From the IMG/VR virus record IMGVR_UViG_3300021514_000002, positions 256,001 to 320,000 of that record: 64,000 nucleotides of DNA; one strand, given 5' to 3'. This document shows, piece after piece, positions 3,945 to 58,432 of the stretch (position 1 is the first letter of the stretch; every line of letters starts with the position of its first letter). The translations under genes were made by a program, and so were the position numbers. The notes beneath the pieces are model-generated. The model was given only the letters and a program-made list of their open reading frames with translations. It had not been told where the DNA came from and did no database searches. Source of the DNA: a virus (Duplodnaviria; Caudoviricetes).

Positions 3945-6587
3945 ATGGGATATATCGGCACAATAAAAAAAAATAACGATATTTTAGTCTGGGAACGAAA
4001 CAACGGAAAACGCGAAGTAGTTAATTATAGAGCACCTTATTATTTCTATACAAAATCCAAGACTGGTACATATACCAGCATGTATGGTGATAAATTAGAA
4101 CGTCATGATTTCGCAACAAGTAAAGAATTCAATACGGAACGGGCAAAATGTAATAGCATGGGGATTGAGATGTTTGAATCGGATATCCCTCCCGAACTGA
4201 AACTATTATCAGAAAAATACTATAATAAACCTGTTCCAGTTCTTAATGTAACCTTTTTCGATATTGAAGTAGATTACGACAAGCAACGCGGTTATTCGTC
4301 AATTGAAGATCCATACGCCCCGATTAATGCTATTGCATTATATAATACTTGGCAGAAGCGAATGTTGGTATTAGCAGTACCACCCGAAGAATATGATGGA
4401 CCGACAGACGAAAAAACTATCATTGCATTAATGAATGAAATCGCCGAATTATCAACAGATTATACCATTGAAGTAGTTTTGTTTGATAGCGAACGTGAAT
4501 TATTAATTCGTTTTTTGGAAGAAATTGAAGATAGTGATGCTCTTTCGGGTTGGAATAGTGAAATGTACGATATTCCAATGATGGGTAAACGGTTGGAGTT
4601 GTTAGGGAAACAATATTTCAATAAATTATCGTTCCCAGAAGGCAGACCCCCAAGGTTCAGAGAAGTTGAAGATCAGAATAAAAGAATTAACTGGGTATTA
4701 GATTTATCTGGTAGAATCAGCGCGGATTACATGCTTATATTTAAAAAATATGAGGTAGTTGAAAGGCCGACTTATCGCTTAGAAGCAATTTCCGATGAGA
4801 TATTAATTGATGCAAAAACTAAAGAACCTATTCTACCAAAATTAGAATATGAAGGGTCGTTGGCTAGTCAATACCGTAAGGATTTTATTTGGTTCTTACG
4901 ATATAATCTCCGCGATACTGAAATCTTGAAAGGTTTTGAAGACCGTTTAGGATATGTTGAACTTGCAAATCAAATGTACCATCTTTCAACTGGCCAATTC
5001 AAACACGTAACAGGTACATTAAAATTATCAGAGCTTGCAACGATTAATTACTGTCATTATGAATTAAACGGCGTGGTTGTTAATGATGTACATGTTCCCG
5101 ATCAAACAGAAAAAGCTAAAGGTGCGTTTGTATTACTTCCACAAATTGGGGAACATGAATGGATTGGAGCAATTGATATCAATTCATTATATCCGTCAGC
5201 CATTCGTTCAAACAACATTAGTCCAGAAACTATCATCGGACAATTCATTGAAAACGAACGAGCTTTTGTAGAAATCAAGAAACGGTCTTTTGTCCAATTG
5301 ACCCTTGAGATGGATAGTGGTGAAAAACTAACTGCAAGTGCCGACGAATGGCGCGAGGCATTGTTGAACAAAAACTGGTCAATTTCTGGTTACGGAACTG
5401 TATTTTCCCAAGAAAAACAAGGGATTATGCCAGCCATTCTCGAATATTGGTATTCTAGTAGAAAGAAATATCAGAAATTGATGATAGAAGCTAAAGAAAA
5501 CGGCGACCAAATAAAAGCCACATATTATGATAAATTACAATACGTTTATAAGATTAAACTGAACAGTTACTATGGTTCATTGTTGAATGGATATTTTAGA
5601 TTTTACGATAAGCGCCTTGGTGAAAGTACAACTGGTACTAGTCGTGCTATACTTTTACATCAATGCGCAAAGGTTGCCGAACTTCTTGACGGTGAATATG
5701 CTCAAACCGACAGATTGGAATATGATAAGCACGGTAAACCGCATATTGGATATTCTGATAAATGGTCAGTTCTATATGGCGATACTGATTCAACTTACTT
5801 TGAAACACATGCCACATGTGAAGAAGAGGCAGTTATAATCGCAGACGCTGTTGGCGAAAAGACAAGTGAATCTTTCCCAGAATTCATGCGCGAAACTTTT
5901 CTATGTGCCCATGGATTCGACGACATCATTAAAACAGGACGCGAGATCGTTTCAGACAAAGGAATCTTTGTTGATAAGAAACGTTACTTCTTACACATCG
6001 TTGACAATGAAGGATTTAAATGTGATAAGATTAAGGTCATGGGATTGGACACGAAAAAGACTACACTACCAAAAGAAGTATCTAATACATTAAATGGATT
6101 TGTTGAACGGTACTTAAAAGGCGAAAATTGGGATACGATTGCAACCGAGATTGTTGATTACAAAGATGTACTTTTTAACACAAAGAATGTTATGTTTATT
6201 GGGTTACCAAAAGGCGTTAAAAATGTTGAGAAATACACACAAGCATATGAGGATGATAAAACTACTAGACTTCCTGGTCATGTGGCTGCTAGTATATTTT
6301 ATAACATTTGTCGTCAATTATATGACGATAAGGAAAGTTTTGAAATTAAATCAGGCATGAAAATAAAAGTATTCTACTTGAATAAAATGTATGGTAGATT
6401 TAAGAGTATTGCAATTCCTGTTGACATTGAAAAAGTCCCTGATTGGTTTATTGAAGACTTTACTATTGATAGAAAAGCACACGTTGATAGGTTAGTAGAT
6501 AATCCTATGAATAATATAATTAAAGCAATAGACAAGGTATCACCATCACACCAAAGTCTATTGACGGATTCACTGTTGGATTTTTAA
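3945..6587 (+). CDS. 43: Family B DNA polymerase (T4 gp43-like)
   Basis: Exo motifs FFDIEVD, WNSEMYDIP, YNLRD; polymerase motifs DINSLYPS, KIKLNSYYG, YGDTDS; C-terminal SLLDF clamp-binding-like tail. Confidence 0.97.
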   Translation: MGYIGTIKKNNDILVWERNNGKREVVNYRAPYYFYTKSKTGTYTSMYGDKLERHDFATSKEFNTERAKCNSMGIEMFESDIPPELKLLSEKYYNKPVPVLNVTFFDIEVDYDKQRGYSSIEDPYAPINAIALYNTWQKRMLVLAVPPEEYDGPTDEKTIIALMNEIAELSTDYTIEVVLFDSERELLIRFLEEIEDSDALSGWNSEMYDIPMMGKRLELLGKQYFNKLSFPEGRPPRFREVEDQNKRINWVLDLSGRISADYMLIFKKYEVVERPTYRLEAISDEILIDAKTKEPILPKLEYEGSLASQYRKDFIWFLRYNLRDTEILKGFEDRLGYVELANQMYHLSTGQFKHVTGTLKLSELATINYCHYELNGVVVNDVHVPDQTEKAKGAFVLLPQIGEHEWIGAIDINSLYPSAIRSNNISPETIIGQFIENERAFVEIKKRSFVQLTLEMDSGEKLTASADEWREALLNKNWSISGYGTVFSQEKQGIMPAILEYWYSSRKKYQKLMIEAKENGDQIKATYYDKLQYVYKIKLNSYYGSLLNGYFRFYDKRLGESTTGTSRAILLHQCAKVAELLDGEYAQTDRLEYDKHGKPHIGYSDKWSVLYGDTDSTYFETHATCEEEAVIIADAVGEKTSESFPEFMRETFLCAHGFDDIIKTGREIVSDKGIFVDKKRYFLHIVDNEGFKCDKIKVMGLDTKKTTLPKEVSNTLNGFVERYLKGENWDTIATEIVDYKDVLFNTKNVMFIGLPKGVKNVEKYTQAYEDDKTTRLPGHVAASIFYNICRQLYDDKESFEIKSGMKIKVFYLNKMYGRFKSIAIPVDIEKVPDWFIEDFTIDRKAHVDRLVDNPMNNIIKAIDKVSPSHQSLLTDSLLDF

Positions 6588-7004
6588 ATGAAAAAGATAT
6601 ACACCTCAAATTATGCAAGGCATGGAAATAATCCCAACGCGTTCGCTATAAGTTTAACCATACCTGAATGGTATGAAGGTAAGCGACTTGAATATCTCGC
6701 ACCAAAAAGTGACATGGTTGGTAAAATTAAAAAAGATTCTGCAAATTACAATCAACGAAAATATACAAGAGATTATCTTGATATTTTGAGGGCACGTAAT
6801 GTAGATCCAAAAAAATTAATCGAATCTTTACCAGACGGTGCTATTCTGTTATGCTACGAATCCCCTGGTGAGTTTTGCCACAGAAGAATTCTAGCAGATT
6901 GGATTGAGCGGCATACAGAAGTTATTGTACCCGAGTGGAAAAACGAAAAAGAGATTGAAGCAGAAACGCAAAATAAAGTAGTTGACAGTATATTAGATTT
7001 TTAG
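6588..7004 (+). CDS. DUF488-family protein
   Basis: IYTSNY, LAP, LLCYESPGEFCHRRILADW motifs; C-terminal SILDF. Confidence 0.75.
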   Translation: MKKIYTSNYARHGNNPNAFAISLTIPEWYEGKRLEYLAPKSDMVGKIKKDSANYNQRKYTRDYLDILRARNVDPKKLIESLPDGAILLCYESPGEFCHRRILADWIERHTEVIVPEWKNEKEIEAETQNKVVDSILDF

Positions 7005-7053: not shown

Positions 7054-7755
7054 ATGAAACTTACTCAAGATCTCATTGATTTCATCGAAACCGTAGTTAA
7101 AACTGGTCAAAGTGTTAACATTGATAATGTTATCATCGAACCTGATATGGTAAGAGCAATTGATGACGCTCGCACCGTAGTTCTATATCAAAATACTAAT
7201 GTACCTGAAATGCCATTTGGTTCTGTTGGCTTAAACCGGATTAGTGTTTTATTATCACGACTTGAAATCGCAAAATCACAAGACAATTTCACGCTCAATG
7301 TTGTTGTTGATAATGATAGTGAATACGCCCGTTCTATTACTATGAAGAGCACAGGAACAAAGATTGATTACCGCTGTGCTAATCCTTCAACTATCCAAGC
7401 TCCTCGTCAAATAAACGATAATCTGATATACAGCATCCAATTAAATGCCGAAGCGGTTAGTTTGCTTCAAAAGGGGCAAGCTGCAATGGGTTCAGAAACC
7501 GTAACAATTGTGAGTGCAGATGGTATTTCTTTTGAATTAACCGATATAAACAGTGATGTTTTTAAACACACTTTCGCGCCTGCAGTTGATGTATTAGATG
7601 AAGATGCAAATCCTAATTTTTCGCATCGTTATCCTGTAAAAACGTTACTAGCATTGTTTAAACAGAACCCAGATGGCCAATTTAAAATTGGTGAGAAAGG
7701 TATTCTTAATATTAATGTCAATGGTCTTGACATTTACGTTTTGCCACAAGTATAA
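7054..7755 (+). CDS. 45: DNA polymerase sliding clamp (T4 gp45-like)
   Basis: 233 aa, starts MKLTQD; IDYRCANPSTIQAP matches T4 gp45 IFWPAADPSTVVAP as I recall it; next to the polymerase. Confidence 0.8.
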   Translation: MKLTQDLIDFIETVVKTGQSVNIDNVIIEPDMVRAIDDARTVVLYQNTNVPEMPFGSVGLNRISVLLSRLEIAKSQDNFTLNVVVDNDSEYARSITMKSTGTKIDYRCANPSTIQAPRQINDNLIYSIQLNAEAVSLLQKGQAAMGSETVTIVSADGISFELTDINSDVFKHTFAPAVDVLDEDANPNFSHRYPVKTLLALFKQNPDGQFKIGEKGILNINVNGLDIYVLPQV

Positions 7756-35746: not shown

Positions 35747-35775
35747 TTGACATAGTTTAAAAAGTGATATATACT
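35747..35775 (+). promoter_or_regulatory. sigma70 promoter of the gp55-47-46 operon
   Basis: TTGACA (35747-35752), 17 bp spacer, TATACT (35770-35775). Confidence 0.8.
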
Positions 35776-35795
35776 GTCAATTATTGGAGAATAAA

Positions 35796-36314
35796 ATGGC
35801 AATAAAAAAAGAAGAAAAGCCGCCAGTTAAGAAAAAAGTCAATTATATAAAGAATAAAGACCTCCTTGCAGAAGTAATAGTTTGCAAGGAGGAGGGTAAG
35901 ATGTCCGATAAATTAGCGAACATGCTTATTCTTCTAACTGCAAAATATGGACGTTCATCCCAGTTTGGTGGATACACATTTAATGATGATATGCAGGCAT
36001 ATGCCTTAATGATGTTGTGTAAAACTTGGATTGGATTCAAACCCGAAAGAAGCAGCAACGCATTTGCATATTATACACAAAGTATTAAAAATTCATTTAA
36101 ACAATTCTTAAACCGTGAAAAAGTACAACGAGTTGTGCGTGATGAATTATTAGTAGATAAGGGATTAAATCCGTCATTTACATATACAAACGAACATACA
36201 ACTAGCGATTCACATTATGTTCATGATGAAGAAGACCATGGTCAATCTGTGGAAGATCTGAAGAAAATAAATGAAGATGCTAATTCAGAAGAATTAATAT
36301 CTTACAAAAAATAA
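35796..36314 (+). CDS. 55: Late-transcription sigma factor (T4 gp55-like)
   Basis: NYIKNKDLL, F.GYTFNDDM, F.PERSSNAFAYYTQ...N.F...L..EK motifs; T4 55-47-46 synteny. Confidence 0.9.
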   Translation: MAIKKEEKPPVKKKVNYIKNKDLLAEVIVCKEEGKMSDKLANMLILLTAKYGRSSQFGGYTFNDDMQAYALMMLCKTWIGFKPERSSNAFAYYTQSIKNSFKQFLNREKVQRVVRDELLVDKGLNPSFTYTNEHTTSDSHYVHDEEDHGQSVEDLKKINEDANSEELISYKK

Positions 36315-36339: not shown

Positions 36340-37389
36340 ATGGGTAATAGCACCCCCGCATTAAGTAAAGGTGCGTACTTTACTGACTTGCATGTTGGGG
36401 CTAAATCCAATTCACAACAACATAACGAAGATTGTGTCAATTATATTGATTGGTTCTGTGCTAATGTAAAAGCAGACCCTGAAATTGATTACATTTGTTT
36501 TGTAGGTGATTGGCACGAAGTCCGAAGCGCGATTAACGTGTTTACATTAAAATATTCATATGAAATTGCTACAAAAATCAATGACTTAGATCTGCCTGTA
36601 TATTTTATCATTGGCAACCATGATCTATATCATAGAAATAATAGGGACATTTATTCAGTTGTCCCTTTTAATGAGTTTAAAAATTTCAATATAATTGATA
36701 AACCTACGGTAATTGAGAATATTGGGGATGGTGTATTAATGTGCCCATTCCTGTTCCATGAAGAATATACCAAATTATCACAATATAATAAGATTCCTTT
36801 CTGGGTAGGACATTTTGAATTCAAGGGGTTTGTTGTTACTGGTTACAATATTACAATGAAAACCGGCCCAGACCATACGGACTTCGATGGACCAGAAAAT
36901 ATTATATCTGGTCATTTTCACAAAAGACAAACTAGCGGGAACGTAACCTATATTGGGAATACCTTTCCGACTAACTTCAGTGACGCTGGGGATGTTGAAC
37001 GCGGCATGATGATTTTTAACCATACTAATAAAGATATGAAGTTTCTTGATTGGGAAGATTGTCCCAAATATATAACAGGTACCTTATCCGATATAATAGC
37101 TGAAAAAATCAAATTGTATCCAAATTCACGAGTTCGTTGTGTAGCTGATATTCCCATAACATACGAGGAAAGTTTAGAATTGAAGAAAACTTTCATAGAG
37201 GGTTATGATTTGCGGGAATTTGCTATTGAGGAATCTAGTGAAATCCAAGAAGCATTGACCGAGACAGAAACAACCATCAACGAAAGAAATCTTGGTACTG
37301 TTGATGAAATGGTAGTAGAAATGTTAAACGACATCGAATCGGAACATATCGACAATGATTTACTTTCCGAAATCTACCAAAACTTATAA
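36340..37389 (+). CDS. 47: Mre11/SbcD-like nuclease (T4 gp47)
   Basis: FTDLHVG, FVGDW, IIGNHD, GHFE, SGHFH metallophosphoesterase motifs. Confidence 0.95.
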   Translation: MGNSTPALSKGAYFTDLHVGAKSNSQQHNEDCVNYIDWFCANVKADPEIDYICFVGDWHEVRSAINVFTLKYSYEIATKINDLDLPVYFIIGNHDLYHRNNRDIYSVVPFNEFKNFNIIDKPTVIENIGDGVLMCPFLFHEEYTKLSQYNKIPFWVGHFEFKGFVVTGYNITMKTGPDHTDFDGPENIISGHFHKRQTSGNVTYIGNTFPTNFSDAGDVERGMMIFNHTNKDMKFLDWEDCPKYITGTLSDIIAEKIKLYPNSRVRCVADIPITYEESLELKKTFIEGYDLREFAIEESSEIQEALTETETTINERNLGTVDEMVVEMLNDIESEHIDNDLLSEIYQNL

Positions 37390-37415: not shown

Positions 37416-39707
37416 ATGATTAAATTTAAACAACTTTCAATTAAAAATTTTCTGTCATATGGCGAAGTTCCAACAATAATAGACCTTGACGATACGGGCA
37501 CTACGTTGATTGTAGGGGAAGATCTGGATAATACTGCATCTGGAACTGGGGCTAATGGCGTCGGGAAAACTGTATGGATAAATGCGCTTATCTACGGATT
37601 GTATGGCAAACCAATATCTAATATATCATTAGATAATCTCGTCAATAATATTAATAAGAAGAACATGGAAGTTATTATTGAATTTGAAAAAGATGGAAAT
37701 GTGTGTACTGTTAAACGTGCGCGCAAGATAACGGGTTCAGGTAACTATGCTAAAGTCTTTATCCGTCCATCTGGTACAGATTTAGATGAAAATAAGCACG
37801 ACAAGACACCAGATAGTATAAGCAATATAAATGATTTTATTGCCGAGCTACTTGGGATTCCCTATGAACTATTTGTTCGCATTGTTGCTTTTGCGGCAAC
37901 CCATACACCGTTCCTCGATTTACCTGTTAGACATGCGTCACAAGCAAATCAATCTGATATTATGGAAGAACTATTTAGACTAACACAATTGTCTGTTAAA
38001 GCAGAATCCCTTAAAGTTGAAATTAGGGATACTAAACAATCGTTAGAAATTAAAACTTTACATAATGAACATCTCGAAAAAGAACATGAGCGCCATAATA
38101 AACAATTACTATCTGCAAGAAATCGCGTAGATGATTGGGAAGATGACCGCGATGTTGAAGTGATTGCTCTAAAAAAAGTATTAGAAGATTATGAAGCTGT
38201 TCCTATTGAGGAACAAGAAAAACTATATGAGCGCGTTGCAGAATTAAAGATTACGCTTGCAGAAGAAAAAGAAAAACAACAGACCCTTGAAACGATTATT
38301 ACTGAAATTAGTGCAGAATTCACTGTATCAAAATCAAAGTTAGTGGTTATTACAGAAAGTAAAGAAAGAATTATAAAGTGGAAGGAAGAAAATATAAAGA
38401 AGATTGCTGATTATAAAGCAGCAGCTGAGAAACTTCCTACTGCATATGTACTTAGCGAACAACAAAAATTACATCAGAAACTAGATACTTTAACAGAAAA
38501 TTTAAAAACTCTTACGGCTAAAGAAAAAGAAATAGAAGGCGACATTACACTTACCACTAATGAGTTAAATGAAGCCGAAGATGAATTAGTACATCTAGAA
38601 GAAGCAAAATGTCCATATTGTTTACAACAACTTGAAGATGCTGCAGCGAAAATTAATAAATGTAAAGATGATATAAAAATTAAAGAACAAGAGTTGTTTA
38701 ATTTTTCAGTGCTTTTAGATGTTGTTCAAAAAAACATAGTAGTTACATCTAAGGATGTTAAAACAGTTTCCGATGATATTGATTATTCTATAAACGAAAT
38801 AAACAATTATGAATATACGCGCAATGAATACGTTGTAAAATTACAAGAGTTGTTTAATGAACAGTGTCCACATGGTAATGCTAAAACTGTAGGTGATATG
38901 ATTTCAGTTATTTCCGAAATGACCGAAGAAAATATGCACTTAAAAGAAACCCTTGCAAAAGAAGCCGACGGGTTAGTTGCGATTGACGATGTAATTGAAT
39001 TAATCAATAATGAATTAATAGAATGTGAAAGCAACATTACAATTTCATCCTTGAATGAATTATACGAAATAAAGAACAAAATTAAACAACAAAAAGATAA
39101 GATTAAAGAATTAAAATCTGCTATTAATCCATATCTTGCACCATTAAATGAGTTACTAGATATTAAACTGGAACCTATTGATATGGATGCAATTAATAAA
39201 CTAACTAACTTGATAACACATCAGAATTATTTAGTTAAATTATTAACCAAGAAAGATAGTTTCATTCGTAAAACATTGTTGACTAAAAACCTTGTATTTT
39301 TAAATCAACGATTAAAAGAATATCTATTAGCTTTGGGATTGCCACACAAGGTAGAATTTACCCATGAAATGACTGCAAACATATCACAATTTGGTAGAGA
39401 ATTGGATTTTGGGAACTTGTCTAGTGGACAAAAAGCGCGCGTAAATCTCGCGTTGTCTTTCTCGTTTAGGGACGTATTACAAAAATCACACGATAGTATT
39501 AATGTTTGTATGCTTGATGAAGTTCTTGACGTTGGCCTTGATTCGGTTGGCGTACAAAACGCAGCACGAATGCTGAAGCGCAAGGCACGTGATGAAGATT
39601 TGGCACTGTTCATTATTTCACACAGGGACGAAGTTAGTAATATATTCGACCGAAGAATGACAGTCCAAATGGAAAAAGGTTTCAGTTCTGTGAAGGTAGA
39701 AGAATAA
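37416..39707 (+). CDS. 46: Rad50/SbcC-like ATPase (T4 gp46)
   Basis: Walker A GANGVGKT, coiled coils with CPYC hook, LSSGQKAR signature, MLDEVLD Walker B. Confidence 0.96.
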   Translation: MIKFKQLSIKNFLSYGEVPTIIDLDDTGTTLIVGEDLDNTASGTGANGVGKTVWINALIYGLYGKPISNISLDNLVNNINKKNMEVIIEFEKDGNVCTVKRARKITGSGNYAKVFIRPSGTDLDENKHDKTPDSISNINDFIAELLGIPYELFVRIVAFAATHTPFLDLPVRHASQANQSDIMEELFRLTQLSVKAESLKVEIRDTKQSLEIKTLHNEHLEKEHERHNKQLLSARNRVDDWEDDRDVEVIALKKVLEDYEAVPIEEQEKLYERVAELKITLAEEKEKQQTLETIITEISAEFTVSKSKLVVITESKERIIKWKEENIKKIADYKAAAEKLPTAYVLSEQQKLHQKLDTLTENLKTLTAKEKEIEGDITLTTNELNEAEDELVHLEEAKCPYCLQQLEDAAAKINKCKDDIKIKEQELFNFSVLLDVVQKNIVVTSKDVKTVSDDIDYSINEINNYEYTRNEYVVKLQELFNEQCPHGNAKTVGDMISVISEMTEENMHLKETLAKEADGLVAIDDVIELINNELIECESNITISSLNELYEIKNKIKQQKDKIKELKSAINPYLAPLNELLDIKLEPIDMDAINKLTNLITHQNYLVKLLTKKDSFIRKTLLTKNLVFLNQRLKEYLLALGLPHKVEFTHEMTANISQFGRELDFGNLSSGQKARVNLALSFSFRDVLQKSHDSINVCMLDEVLDVGLDSVGVQNAARMLKRKARDEDLALFIISHRDEVSNIFDRRMTVQMEKGFSSVKVEE

Positions 39708-39886
39708 TGGGAAACAACAACGAATCATATCGCATTGTGCAGGATTTTCAACTTATCAGTGTATCGCTTGTTGCTAATCCTGAAAAAGGGATGGAAATAC
39801 AAACTCTAATGGAACGCGACGTTAATATTCTCATAGATAAATACGATAGAACTATGAAATTATTGGAGATGTATATAAATGAATAA
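39707..39886 (+). CDS. 59-aa ORF with a prohead-protease-like segment and YDRTMKLL motif (not in the ORF track)
   Basis: TAATG coupling to gp46; MGNNNESYRIVQDFQLISVSLVANPEKGMEIQTLMERDVNILIDKYDRTMKLLEMYINE*. Confidence 0.7.
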   Translation: MGNNNESYRIVQDFQLISVSLVANPEKGMEIQTLMERDVNILIDKYDRTMKLLEMYINE

Positions 39887-40244
39887 CGTAGAAGCTGTTG
39901 ATTATATCAACCGTGCAAAACAAGCAATGACAAATGTAATGGAATTTTTTCTATTTGAACCGATAAATGATAATTTAATGGCACGAATGGAAACCGCCCT
40001 TGTTGGCGAATTAATTACCGAAATTGATATTGATTTTGGTGTTGATGTTAAATATGAAGACAATGATGTATGTGTGGTAGTTTCACTCGACGGAATTAAA
40101 GTTGATAAAGGAATTCTAGAAATTGAAGGACGTTATACAAACTGTCCAGCATTATTTGCGGAATTGGAAACGTTAGACGCTGCTATTGAGTTTACAGATA
40201 GTGAAAGTAATATCGCATTTGACAGGGCTATGGAAATAGTTTAA
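39879..40244 (+). CDS. 121-aa ORF with a tail-sheath-C-terminal-like segment, ending FDRAMEIV
   Basis: FFLFEPINDNL resembles sheath FVFEPNDQL; overlaps the previous stop codon. Confidence 0.8.
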   Translation: MNNVEAVDYINRAKQAMTNVMEFFLFEPINDNLMARMETALVGELITEIDIDFGVDVKYEDNDVCVVVSLDGIKVDKGILEIEGRYTNCPALFAELETLDAAIEFTDSESNIAFDRAMEIV

Positions 40245-40573
40245 TGAAATATTGGAGAGATTCAGAAGCCGAATATCTTGAATATGAAGAAGCTGGACGA
40301 ATACTACCGTATAAACATCCTGCTGCTATAGCAGCGTCTGAGGACATTCGTACAGAAGTAGAGATAATTCCTAATACTATGGAATTTCGTGACTACCTTG
40401 ATCCAACAACATTCGTTACTAGTTTACGGAAATGTGTTAAGGTAGAACGTAGGTTGTTTCGTTTTGGCAAAGACATGCTTGAACAAATTGCATGGATTCC
40501 ATTAGATATAATGGGTTACAAAGTACCACCTAATAAATTTGCGGCCTTTGAGCGCGCAATGGAGATTATATAA
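40244..40573 (+). CDS. 109-aa ORF with a possible major-capsid-like segment, ending FERAMEII
   Basis: TAATG coupling; IIP..M....LDPTTFVTSL versus capsid YIPLM....VNPTTFQPVVSL. Confidence 0.8.
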   Translation: MKYWRDSEAEYLEYEEAGRILPYKHPAAIAASEDIRTEVEIIPNTMEFRDYLDPTTFVTSLRKCVKVERRLFRFGKDMLEQIAWIPLDIMGYKVPPNKFAAFERAMEII

Positions 40574-40869
40574 TGAACAATGAAATAGAAATTTCAATGT
40601 TAGATTTTACGAATATGTCGAGTGAAGATACGCATGTATTAATTAACGTGAATATTGGGGCAATGCCTCCTAAACGAGCGTACGATTATCTTGTCAATAT
40701 CAAAACAACACTTCCACTATGTAAGATGTTGAATGAAAGAGGTATCACCTATTCCCTGATTGGTTGTAGATCTGATGGGGCTGGTAATATTGTAACAAGT
40801 ATCGAATCTAATGATAATATTGTTGATACAGAAAATACAAAGTTTGATGACGCAATGAATATTGTTTAA
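40573..40869 (+). CDS. 98-aa ORF with a portal-like segment, ending FDDAMNIV
   Basis: TAATG coupling; INVNIGAMPPKRAYDYLVNIK versus portal FYIDVGKMPPQRVKQYLEGIK. Confidence 0.8.
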   Translation: MNNEIEISMLDFTNMSSEDTHVLINVNIGAMPPKRAYDYLVNIKTTLPLCKMLNERGITYSLIGCRSDGAGNIVTSIESNDNIVDTENTKFDDAMNIV

Positions 40870-40915: not shown

Positions 40916-40967
40916 AAATATTCCTTATAGGTGGTATACTAAATATTACCAATTATAAGGAATATTT
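40916..40967 (+). promoter_or_regulatory. 14-bp inverted repeat enclosing an extended -10 promoter; right arm contains the ruvC RBS
   Basis: AAATATTCCTTATA (40916-40929) / TATAAGGAATATTT (40954-40967); TGgTATACT at 40932-40940. Confidence 0.65.
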
Positions 40968-40969
40968 CA

Positions 40970-41470
40970 GTGTCATTAAAAATACTTGGTATAGATCAAA
41001 GTTACAATTCGAGTGGACTAGTAGTTTTAAGCGATGATAATATCATACATTCAGAATGCTTTAAATCTAATAAAGAATCAAATCGTTTTGGACAAGCGCA
41101 CGAGGTTGCAATGTATATTGCATCTATAATAGATACATTCAATCCAGATGTTATTGCCATTGAAGGCTTGGCGTTCGGCATGAAAGGTAACGTCACCCGC
41201 GACTTAGGTGGTCTACAGTTTGTGATTATTTCGCACTTACAAGAAGTAAAGAAGCGCGAAGTAGTAATCGTTGCGCCGTTGACCGTAAAGAAACATGCGA
41301 CGGGTAATGGTAGGGCTAAAAAAGAAGAAATGATAGAAAGTTTACCCAAATATGCATCAGATATTTTTCTGGCATTAGGGGTGAAAAAAACAACTGGACT
41401 TGCAGATTTGGCAGATGCGTATTGGATCGCTAAAGTTGCAGAACAACTACATAAAGAAGAAAATAATTAA
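40970..41470 (+). CDS. ruvC: RuvC-like Holliday junction resolvase
   Basis: ILGIDQS, IAIEG, TVKKHATGNG.A.K, DLADAYWIA motifs. Confidence 0.9.
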   Translation: MSLKILGIDQSYNSSGLVVLSDDNIIHSECFKSNKESNRFGQAHEVAMYIASIIDTFNPDVIAIEGLAFGMKGNVTRDLGGLQFVIISHLQEVKKREVVIVAPLTVKKHATGNGRAKKEEMIESLPKYASDIFLALGVKKTTGLADLADAYWIAKVAEQLHKEENN

Positions 41471-55330: not shown

Positions 55331-58300
55331 ATGTCCGGATTTGACCCGATTGGCGATTCTGCAAATAGCCTACGAACAGAAGGCCAGGAAATAAAATTAA
55401 AATTCAAACAAGGCGTCCCTGCGACTAGTCAAGGGACGATTGAATGGAATATACCAGTACCCGCACATGGTTGTGTTTCTGGCGAAACAGGCGCATATGC
55501 AGGTATTATATTTCTTCTTAGCACTGAACCCCTTGATGCCACAAATATTCCACAAGATGGGACAGTTTATGTAGCAGATCCAACCGCAGATTTTGATTTA
55601 AGTACAGCAGATATGATTGGCAATGCCATTGTTGTTGGTGCGGTATACGAATGTGAACAGAAAGGCCGTGGTGAAACATTAACAACTTCTCTTGTTATAA
55701 GTAATTTACAACAAGGTATATCATACTACTTGGGCGGTTACGCAGTAGATTGTCAATATCGTTATCATTCCGATGGTATCCGCTCCTATTCTGATTCTTA
55801 TGGTGAAAAGGATGGTACTAGTATACCATCTACCCAAACTATTAGTCTTGGCAACGAGTCAACAGGCGTGTTGCCAACAGATGGCACAGGATTAGTTCCC
55901 AGTGTTAATTATGAGTTTGATTTGATCGTAGATAATTCATTCCCTAATGGGTATGATTATAAGACGATACCGATTACAATTGATGGTATTAACGCAGGCA
56001 CGTATCAAGATTTATTAGACACAATTAAAGCACAGATAAAATTATCCGATAATCCACCACAATCGCCTGTTCCACCACATACTAATGATTTTTATTGGAA
56101 CGCAACAGAAGAAGAATTATATCAATACGATGGTACTAATTATAATTTAATAGACGTTATAAAAGAACTTACTGATCCTGCTAATGTAGTGGTAGGTACA
56201 TATTGGTATAATCCTACTAGTAAAGTTTTACAGAATTATGATAGTCTCGCAGGCTCACCAATACCAGCCGCCACGTGGAACGTTGTTAACTTTTTGGAAA
56301 CTGAATCTGATCCAACAAATCCAGCATGTGATTTATATTGGTACGATAGTACGCTCGCACGTAAATGGGATGGTTCTACTTGGTGCAATCAAGTAACATT
56401 AATATCATCAACAGACCCAAGCGATTACCCTACATTAGATTGTGGTACATATTGGTACGATTCAACTAATACGACATTATTCGGATGGGACAATATATGG
56501 GTAGAAAAATCAGCTATTTATTGGCCAGAGGCTCCCACCGCGTTATCTAATGGTACTTATTGGTTCAACAATACGTCTTCTGAAATGTTCCGTAGGGTTT
56601 CATCTGCGTGGACTGACATTACAATAACCACAAAGATTCAAGAAACCGAGCCAACTGTTCTATTGGATGGTATTGTATGGTATAAACCATCAACAGAAGA
56701 ATTAAAAGTATATTCAACAGGCTCACCTTTTGGATGGATACTAACAGACGTATTAGTTTGGGCAGACGATCCAACAGATATAACATCATGTGATTTATGG
56801 TGGAACCAAACAACAAACGTTTTATCTGTCTGGGATGTTGTTAATAGTGAATGGGATGCGGTTGTCAGTTTTACTATTTCCGTATTAGATCCTGCTTTAC
56901 CTGTAGTAATAGTAACTGATACTGTTTGGTATGAACCTACTAATGGTGTTTTGACGCGCTGGGATGGTAGCGATTGGGTTTCTACTACACATGTAGAGAA
57001 AGCAACCGATCCAACACAACCTAGTGTTGGCGAAGGTTGGTATAAACCATCAACAAACACATGGAATATATGGAATACTCCAGTTGCAGGGTGGAATATA
57101 ATAGATCCTATTGATGCCATTATTGATCCAACTAGTATACCAAATGGAACTTACTGGTTTGATACCACCACCATTGCATTAAATGTTCGCAACGGCATTA
57201 GTTGGATTTCTGTAACATTTTCTACAGTGCCATTCGTTCCAGCAAGAAAAAGTTTATGGTTTGATACTTCAACCTCGGTACTAAATGAATGGAATGGTAC
57301 TATGTGGACTGAAGCCACTCCTACTGTAGAAGTATATTTTAATACGGCAGGTGGTATAACTTTCCGTACAGTAAAAAGAGGAAGTGATACTGCTATTTTA
57401 GTACCAGTACCTCCTGGTTCTCTTTCAGCAACTGATACCGTTGTTAATGGTTTTGCAGATTTTTCTGAATTCGATATAGACCCCGTATCAGGATATACAT
57501 TCGAGCGTGAGACATCTGGACGAATATACACAGCACGAAATATTCCAGCTAATTCGTTTCTATGGAGTAATTTAAAATACGTAGGTAAAATTCAATTTCC
57601 AGGTGCTGGTAATGATGGTAAATCTGGCGTACCTTCTTATGCTGAGCTTGGTGTTGGTGATGACGGAACTCCTGATGAACGTCGTGAATTAATGGATAGT
57701 ATTCGCTCCCAACTTGGTTATCCCGTAGTCGATGTTGAGTTAACCAATTATCAATTAGATACTGCAATCCAAGGTGCACTTGAATCATTCAGAAAACGTT
57801 CTGGCGCTGCTACGCATAGAGGGTTCTTTTTCTTAAATATTGAACCAGGAAAACAACAATATATATTAACAAACAAAGCGTTGGGATACAATAAAATTGT
57901 TACTATTATGGAAGCTAAACGCTTTACATCTGCATTCTTATCATCTGCGCATGGTTCAGGGGTTTATGGTCAAGTAGTATTGCAGCATTTATATAATATG
58001 GGTACTTTTGATTTAACTAGTTTTCATTTGGTGGCACAATATGTTGAACAATTGGAACACTTATTCTCGACTAGGTTAACGTTTACATTCCATGAAAGTG
58101 ATCGTGTTTTTTCATTGTTTAATTCTTTTACCCGCCCTGAAAAGATATTACTTGATTGTATGGTCGAGCGAACAGAACAAGATTTACTTAAAGATAGATA
58201 TATTAAAACATGGATTGAGCGATATGCGTTATCAGAAGCAATGATGATGTTAGCGCATATTCGTGGTAAATTTGCATCATTACCTGGTGCAGGCGGTGGT

Positions 58301-58432
58301 ATTGCATTAAACGCAGGCGAATTAATTTCAATTGCGCAATCTTATCGCGAAGAATTATTAAATCAGATAGATGAATTTATAGTTGATTTACCAGAAGAAG
58401 TTGGAATGTATAGTACGTTTATTTTAGGATAA
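55331..58432 (+). CDS. 13: Neck protein (gp13-like C-terminal domain) fused to a long W-rich repeat region
   Basis: C-terminal IRSQLGYPVVDVEL...QLD.AI..AL..FR...W...YAL...M..L..IRGKF..LPG motif; TATAAATA at 55296-55303. Confidence 0.85.
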   Translation: MSGFDPIGDSANSLRTEGQEIKLKFKQGVPATSQGTIEWNIPVPAHGCVSGETGAYAGIIFLLSTEPLDATNIPQDGTVYVADPTADFDLSTADMIGNAIVVGAVYECEQKGRGETLTTSLVISNLQQGISYYLGGYAVDCQYRYHSDGIRSYSDSYGEKDGTSIPSTQTISLGNESTGVLPTDGTGLVPSVNYEFDLIVDNSFPNGYDYKTIPITIDGINAGTYQDLLDTIKAQIKLSDNPPQSPVPPHTNDFYWNATEEELYQYDGTNYNLIDVIKELTDPANVVVGTYWYNPTSKVLQNYDSLAGSPIPAATWNVVNFLETESDPTNPACDLYWYDSTLARKWDGSTWCNQVTLISSTDPSDYPTLDCGTYWYDSTNTTLFGWDNIWVEKSAIYWPEAPTALSNGTYWFNNTSSEMFRRVSSAWTDITITTKIQETEPTVLLDGIVWYKPSTEELKVYSTGSPFGWILTDVLVWADDPTDITSCDLWWNQTTNVLSVWDVVNSEWDAVVSFTISVLDPALPVVIVTDTVWYEPTNGVLTRWDGSDWVSTTHVEKATDPTQPSVGEGWYKPSTNTWNIWNTPVAGWNIIDPIDAIIDPTSIPNGTYWFDTTTIALNVRNGISWISVTFSTVPFVPARKSLWFDTSTSVLNEWNGTMWTEATPTVEVYFNTAGGITFRTVKRGSDTAILVPVPPGSLSATDTVVNGFADFSEFDIDPVSGYTFERETSGRIYTARNIPANSFLWSNLKYVGKIQFPGAGNDGKSGVPSYAELGVGDDGTPDERRELMDSIRSQLGYPVVDVELTNYQLDTAIQGALESFRKRSGAATHRGFFFLNIEPGKQQYILTNKALGYNKIVTIMEAKRFTSAFLSSAHGSGVYGQVVLQHLYNMGTFDLTSFHLVAQYVEQLEHLFSTRLTFTFHESDRVFSLFNSFTRPEKILLDCMVERTEQDLLKDRYIKTWIERYALSEAMMMLAHIRGKFASLPGAGGGIALNAGELISIAQSYREELLNQIDEFIVDLPEEVGMYSTFILG

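Follow-up and report, generated by a model that had tools for sequence, protein, structure and literature searches.

Why should four consecutive small genes of a giant phage, whose products differ in fold, all end in the same short peptide? The question is raised by a 64,000-nucleotide (nt) stretch of viral DNA, here called the window, which comprises bases 256001-320000 of the 363,531-bp IMG/VR virus record IMGVR_UViG_3300021514_000002. The record was recovered from a deep-sea hydrothermal-vent metagenome and represents a giant (jumbo) phage of an uncultured lineage. Its guanine-plus-cytosine content is 36%, it is rated complete by CheckV, and T4-superfamily core genes are present. The sequencing runs listed as containing it are all of metagenomic DNA, with no RNA run among them. 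Directly behind its rad50 gene, four open reading frames (ORFs) carry the C-terminal motif [FY]-[DE]-x-[AT]-M-x-[IL]-[VIL], which we refer to as the tail, and its bearers as tagged proteins or carriers. In the reading that we favor, and to which we give even chances, the tail is a modular peptide by which proteins dock on one shared partner, and it acts in the cytoplasm during early or middle infection.

All four ORFs lie on the plus strand. The first, of 59 amino acids (aa; window 39707-39886), overlaps the rad50 stop with its start and contains the tail copy YDRTMKLL (39842-39865), followed by six more residues (EMYINE) before the stop. The 121-aa ORF (39879-40244), the 109-aa ORF (40244-40573) and the 98-aa ORF (40573-40869) end in FDRAMEIV (40218-40241), FERAMEII (40547-40570) and FDDAMNIV (40843-40866), respectively, each of which abuts the stop codon. 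An earlier note on this DNA had described the four ORFs in these terms, three stopping exactly at the motif and one six residues after it, and had seen the motif on no other protein in the window; both statements hold. Searches against PHROGs and Pfam gave no match for the four window proteins or for most of the other tagged proteins introduced below.

To see how far the tail extends, the whole genome was scanned in six frames with the strict pattern [FY][DE].[AT]M.[IL][VIL] and with a slightly looser form. The strict pattern matched 9 times and the looser one 14 times, where composition predicts 0.14 (long ORFs) or 0.8 (all frames) by chance. All 14 copies lie 0-6 residues before a stop codon, and the scan returned no internal occurrence. 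The motif is therefore commoner than the earlier note had reported, with 14 copies against fewer than one expected. The ten carriers outside the window are located at genome positions 64255-64758, 65412-65702, 65699-65905, 83539-83961, 84028-84255, 124671-124889, 135927-136214, 147455-147685, 223295-224602 and 323016-324188. Carriers are acidic in 13 of 14 cases (median isoelectric point 4.5). Two pairs are paralogous (96/68 aa, E 1e-7; 95/76 aa, E 4e-4), and most cargoes have no detectable similarity to one another. The adjacent 96- and 68-aa paralogues (genome 65412-65905; L001 5412-5905) additionally share a Cys-rich C-G-x-D-C-P-V…D-C motif.

Conservation of the tail resides in the protein rather than in the DNA, as had been argued from synonymous differences between copies. 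Across the 14 copies, codon third positions have an entropy of 1.3-1.8 bits, whereas the codons for F, D, A, M and the two final residues hardly vary at positions 1 and 2. Since the wobble positions are free and the other two fixed, selection is, judged from the codons, acting on the peptide. We further collected 80 distinct tagged proteins across databases, which give the consensus (A/D/N)-[F41/Y38]-[D51/E16/N11]-[R34/D17]-A76-M80-[K30/E16/G13]-[I45/V21]-[V35/L28/I16]. Met at position 5 is invariant (80/80), Ala at position 4 is found in 76/80, and F or Y occupies position 1 in 79/80. No residue follows the motif in 39 of the 80 proteins; the other 41 have 1-6 further residues, often K, D, E or G-D, and the trailing Lys residues are a product of AAATGA stop/start overlaps.

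These data bear on the view that the tail does nothing as a protein and reflects either a nucleotide constraint, such as a Shine-Dalgarno or coupling signal, or a relic of paralogue ancestry. The sequence ATG-GAR within the motif does place GGA(G/A) 9-13 nt ahead of an overlapping start in some cases, and the two paralogous pairs would fit common descent. Against this, wobble positions vary freely, position 6 is K, G, S or N as often as E, most cargoes lack detectable similarity, and the motif is never internal. Several carriers also have no overlapping downstream gene (e.g., the last window ORF ends at 40869 and the next gene starts at 40970). The variability of position 6 and the carriers without an overlapping gene exclude a ribosome-binding-site artefact, and we consider this view as a whole scarcely credible.

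The tail is also conserved beyond this genome. Related loci were found via Rad50 and by whole-contig pattern searches. Five tagged proteins are encoded by contig G001, six by G009, four by G007, three by G006 and two by G002, the last with an additional degenerate copy of the tail on a capsid paralogue; G001 and G002 have orthologues of the 109-aa protein that retain the tail. It was also found in the shorter loci L027, L029 and L038. In contigs G003, G004, G005, G008 and G010 the tail is absent but for chance-like matches, and in T4, Xoo-sp13, GAP32 and XbC2 the DNA pattern for it is no more frequent than at control level. The tag-positive contigs form the nearer clade by portal identity (65-88%), and most of the tag-negative ones are at or below 60%. 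Since the capsid protein is just 27-30% identical to those of the cultured jumbo phages Xoo-sp13 and GAP32, the phage has no close cultured relative; neither megablast with the region nor tblastn with the 121-aa protein produced a match among cultured phages.

Three cargo families were used as queries against 5.8 billion proteins. The tail is retained in 22/22 homologues of the gp25-like family, 20/20 of the DUF6794 family and 9/11 of the portal-mimic family. The absence of the motif from orthologues, which the earlier note had named as an observation that would speak against its proposal, was thus not what we found, as 51 of 53 homologues carry it. The linkers ahead of the motif vary freely among these homologues. 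A scan of IMG/VR with a degenerate DNA pattern for F-D-x-A-M-x-I-V-TAA returned four stretches, and the two readable ones contained no tagged gene.

What kind of structure does the tail form? In the AlphaFold2 (AF2) model of the 121-aa protein, residues 91-121 have a predicted local distance difference test (pLDDT) score below 50, with a short helix (residues 112-117) over the motif. The 20 residues preceding the motif likewise score below 50, so that in this model a flexible linker lies between the cargo and a short terminal peptide. The conserved positions 1, 4, 5 and 8 obey an i, i+3, i+4, i+7 spacing and thus form one helical face. The motif probably forms an amphipathic helix of two turns, with a disordered, acidic linker ahead of it, and the small Ala together with the invariant Met suggests close packing into a groove.

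The cargoes to which the tail is attached were described in the earlier note as unrelated proteins. Their folds do differ; however, they are not simply unrelated, as several resemble virion proteins. The 98-aa protein copies portal residues ~281-305, the region of the GxMPPxR motif, in an alignment, and its G007 orthologue matches 16/25 residues of this phage's portal (BLASTP, E 1e-9). The model of the 121-aa protein has a mean pLDDT of 73.6 and reaches ~90 over residues 11-70. Foldseek returned T4 gp25 (5iw9) as its best match (prob 0.99, E 0.013), and VIA-align returned residues 586-671 of the phi-kp24 sheath, a C-terminal domain (Z 8.0), followed by further sheath C-terminal domains, gp25-like proteins and TssE. 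Comparison of the 121-aa family with the sheath by sequence alone was weak (hhalign, E 0.089), and the likeness therefore rests mainly on the fold searches. A sheath C-terminal/gp25 "handshake"-like domain over residues 1-90 is thus reasonably supported by the model, although with borderline scores and not proven. Among the structural neighbors of this model is also E. coli IraD (Z 7.1), an anti-adaptor with the gp25 fold that prevents delivery to ClpXP by RssB and sets a precedent for the reuse of gp25-like domains in proteolysis control.

Similar relationships were found for other carriers. Residues 2-27 of the 59-aa protein resemble residues 133-157 of the prohead protease gp21 (hhalign, E 0.0025, 25 columns, 40% identity), a 167-aa carrier is protease-like (phrog_207, 2.7e-5), and a 390-aa carrier is a capsid paralogue (phrog_138, 2.3e-45). 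A 435-aa mosaic carrier (G000), whose gene comes after the clamp-loader gene, combines sheath residues 504-610 (1.9e-21), portal residues 329-380 (6.7e-16) and a capsid segment (1.8e-3). In G002, a 308-aa fusion joins protease-like, fibre-repeat-like and gp25-like modules. Both multi-module fusions keep a single terminal tail. One carrier is a DUF6794 protein, and further small carriers have no known relatives. The true scaffold, protease, capsid protein and portal all lack the motif. Our literature search on tagged virion-protein decoys and on DUF6794 found no description of either. Separately, in a 1033-aa virion protein (window 55331-58432) a W-[YF]-x…W-D-G-x-x-W unit is repeated about ten times, and tagged mini-proteins of relatives (L026 7757-7984; L037 8102-8326 and 8526-8720) resemble, by eye, one such unit.

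In the mechanism we propose, the tail would connect 14 or more small and mostly acidic proteins with a single partner common to them all inside the infected cell; many of these proteins are cut-down copies of the portal, the sheath/gp25 domain, the prohead protease and the capsid protein. We infer the binding of a partner, and the cytoplasm rather than the prohead as its site. The amphipathic address tag of the earlier note is indirectly supported by the helical face, the disordered linker, the independence from cargo fold and the conservation among homologues, and no partner protein was found. Further points weigh against our proposal. AF2 assigns low confidence to the helix over the motif, and its model of the tagged capsid paralogue, with a mean pLDDT of 56, is too poor to reveal any docking of that protein's own tail. 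The motif could also work without a single hub, through self-association or by serving as a degron that a host protease reads. Presence/absence profiling of the five tag-positive against the five tag-negative contigs yielded no convincing partner. It left two candidates, a 145-aa tail-region protein and a 170-aa prohead-core-like protein, which the profiling does not discriminate because the distribution of the tag follows portal phylogeny.

The position of the tagged genes bears on when they act. In the window they follow, in the same apparent operon and on the plus strand, a gp55-like late sigma factor (35784-36314), Mre11/gp47 (36340-37389) and Rad50/gp46 (37416-39707), with a near-consensus sigma-70-type promoter at 35747-35775 ahead of the whole run. 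The stops of rad50 and of the small ORFs overlap the following start, either as TAATG or by 8 nt, and therefore the four genes are very probably co-transcribed and translationally coupled with mre11-rad50. A RuvC-like resolvase gene (40970-41470, plus strand, GTG start) is the conserved downstream neighbor, and in relatives the tagged ORFs lie between rad50 and ruvC or flank ruvC on both sides. A 21-nt inverted repeat (40916-40967; 90% complementary, 10-nt loop) in the AT-rich DNA that separates ruvC from the last tagged ORF may represent a terminator or regulatory hairpin. Genome-wide, early-type or replication/recombination regions harbor 13 of the 14 carriers; the ~1.4 kb upstream of these 13 contains no TATAAATA. 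Some tagged genes stand alone. The late region contains a single carrier, the capsid paralogue.

This distribution argues against a role of the tail in capsid targeting, in which it would bind the inner face of the procapsid or the scaffold and the tagged proteins would be packaged and later ejected. Such a role would suit the capsid-protein paralogue and the prohead-protease-like protein among the carriers, and also the architecture of small cargo, flexible linker and short C-terminal peptide. Competition for a capsid site by C-terminal domains is known from the 80alpha scaffold and SaPI1 CpmB, which share one site on the capsid protein (PMC5644958). However, the late structural modules contain just one of the 14 carriers; the other 13 have no T4-type late promoter motif nearby, and the window cluster is coupled to rad50 behind a sigma-70-type promoter. 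Cargo loading calls for co-expression with the shell, from late or adjoining genes, and the location of these 13 does not point to it. Additionally, the motif is missing from the true scaffold, protease, capsid protein and portal, and the carriers are strongly acidic. T4 internal proteins, by comparison, are basic. None of these arguments, whether from location, from the motif-free virion proteins or from acidity, is decisive, and we regard capsid targeting as unlikely.

A second alternative is that the tail governs proteolysis, either as a degron that shortens the life of early proteins or as an SspB-like tether to a host AAA+ protease such as ClpXP. A non-polar C-terminal end on early proteins would be in keeping with this, and the phage itself encodes a two-piece, permuted transfer-messenger RNA (tmRNA) and a ClpP-like protease. 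The sequence M-x-[IV]-[VIL], sometimes followed by K, is reminiscent of LRVVK, with which the tail of E. coli SspB binds ClpX, and also of LREIV in UmuD, a likeness that provides a lead rather than a test. On the other hand, an ssrA-type signal is intolerant of residues after it, and the 41 extended tails, charged residues included, indicate that a free carboxylate directly after the motif is unnecessary. The Lys residues found there are accounted for by the AAATGA overlaps. The tag encoded by the phage tmRNA, AANDAFFEETRLAA, ends in ...RLAA and is of the classical type, unlike the tail. Positions 1 and 2 are conserved as aromatic and acidic, and a simple non-polar-end degron needs neither. 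Searches of the genome for S41 (PF03572) and PDZ_2 (PF13180) domains gave no match, with controls detected, and no Clp-type AAA_2 ATPase or unfoldase was found in it. We therefore rejected both an ssrA-like or ClpX C-motif-1 signal, which requires a non-polar end with a free carboxylate, and Tsp/Prc-type recognition by a phage-encoded S41/PDZ reader; a protease or unfoldase of the host may yet read the tail. The degron for a ClpXP- or Tsp-type protease that the earlier note had suggested thus finds no support, and a proteolytic function in the wider sense appears rather unlikely to us. The tmRNA pieces are located at L058 3393-3989 and 4835-5219 (genome ~232.4-234.2 kb), ~0.85 kb from the ClpP-like gene, and a predicted homing-endonuclease-like ORF lies in between.

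The surroundings of the tagged genes also raise the possibility that the tail docks on a replisome or recombination hub, namely the gp45 clamp, the partners of the gp32 acidic tail or Mre11-Rad50. In all tag-positive relatives the tagged ORFs lie directly after rad50 and around ruvC, the mosaic carrier gene follows the clamp-loader gene, and the gp32 tail (…DSDDILAII…) is loosely similar. The phage does have a second type of shared C-terminal tail, found at the end of the DNA polymerase (…TDSLLDF, window 6567-6587), of a DUF488 protein whose gene adjoins that of the polymerase (…VDSILDF, 6984-7004) and of the gp55-like sigma factor (…EELISYKK, 36288-36314). The gp45-like clamp itself is encoded at 7054-7755. 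This LLDF-type tail looks like the clamp-binding motif of this phage, which would place the DUF488 protein on the clamp; a homologue of T4 gp33 was not detectable in the genome. Because these clamp-binding tails differ in sequence from the new tail, the sliding clamp is an unlikely partner, and we rejected the new tail as a T4-type clamp tail since its 14 carriers follow F-D-x-A-M-x-I-V, and neither (S/T)-L-D-F nor L-[LI]-D-F.

The gp32 tail of this phage, …DSDDILAIIRNRKNKAAE, shares D-D-hydrophobic-hydrophobic-x-I-I with the new tail but has no aromatic residue and no Met, and a basic stretch follows. Its motif, D-[IA]-IL-A-x-I-R-x-R-R, also persists in relatives that lack the tag, and is probably a separate one. 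Moreover, copies of virion proteins have no obvious business at the replication fork, and docking on such a hub seems highly improbable. The gp32 homologues of this phage (L179; genome 346593-347480) and of all relatives have an acidic run followed by that motif, a tail unlike the one of T4 gp32. In another protein, the large terminase subunit (L007 6029-7585; genome 325029-326585), an acidic run is followed by …EGLPSIF (…EGMPVVF in the G002 orthologue), an end that resembles the …DDDIPF tail of bacterial SSB.

Could the tails instead bind one another? In this case they would associate and join separate modules into one particle, as the fusions do covalently. The four window genes are coupled by overlapping stops and starts, an arrangement common among genes for the subunits of a complex, and "Rosetta-stone" fusions occur in relatives (the 308-aa protein and the 435-aa sheath/capsid/portal mosaic). 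However, at eight residues the tail is very short to form a stable bundle, and solitary tagged genes occur elsewhere in the genome. We consider such tail-to-tail assembly very unlikely.

If the tail is a docking peptide for one cytoplasmic partner, as we favor, the nature of its cargoes allows a guess at its purpose. Bacterial STAND/Avs-type sensors read core virion proteins such as the portal, the terminase and the major capsid protein (PMC13581612), and this makes a decoy role for the virion-protein mini-copies plausible by analogy. In a "bait-and-tether" form of counter-defence, which we hold to be doubtful but possible, early tagged mini-copies would bait such sensors and the tail would hand bait and sensor together to one effector, e.g., a host protease. 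If true, this would represent a natural device for targeted degradation or sequestration.

Shared short docking peptides wire hubs in phages and cells, as in clamps, SSB tails and encapsulin cargo. The peptide described here marks as a functional set 80 genes across databases and, within one genome, 14 or more whose function is unknown, and it ties this set to a striking class of cargo, the cut-down virion assembly proteins. At eight residues, it is an ideal experimental handle for naming the partner, whose identity would tell whether the tagged proteins are decoys, assembly regulators or packaged proteins.

In its sequence, its set of carriers and its link to virion mini-copies, the tail is matched by none of the terminal docking peptides compared here, and we found no account of it in the literature. 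It nevertheless resembles several known systems in part. With the capsid-docking peptides, such as encapsulin cargo-loading peptides, the HK97 protease tail and the N-terminal capsid-targeting sequence of T4, it shares the principle of unrelated proteins with a common short terminal peptide after a flexible linker; the genes of the new tail, here known from DNA alone, differ in lying in early, replication and recombination regions. The SspB tether and ssrA of E. coli likewise have a flexible linker and a short non-polar C-terminal peptide, whereas the new tail tolerates extra residues, has aromatic and acidic positions 1 and 2, and comes with no phage unfoldase that we could find. T4-type clamp tails (gp43, gp33 and gp55 on gp45) are, like it, short hydrophobic/acidic peptides at the extreme C-terminus of unrelated proteins that serve one hub. 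They read x-L-[LI]-[DS]-[FY] rather than [FY]-D-x-A-M-x-I-V, and the new tail is found on no replication or transcription protein; its carriers are small and acidic and many are copies of virion proteins. Finally, the acidic tails of the SSB type (E. coli SSB …DDDIPF, T4 gp32, T7 gp2.5 and gp4) are multi-partner docking peptides in which acidic residues precede hydrophobic ones at the C-terminus, and the F-D-D start is shared with SSB, while the new tail is set apart by its aliphatic end and its invariant Ala-Met.

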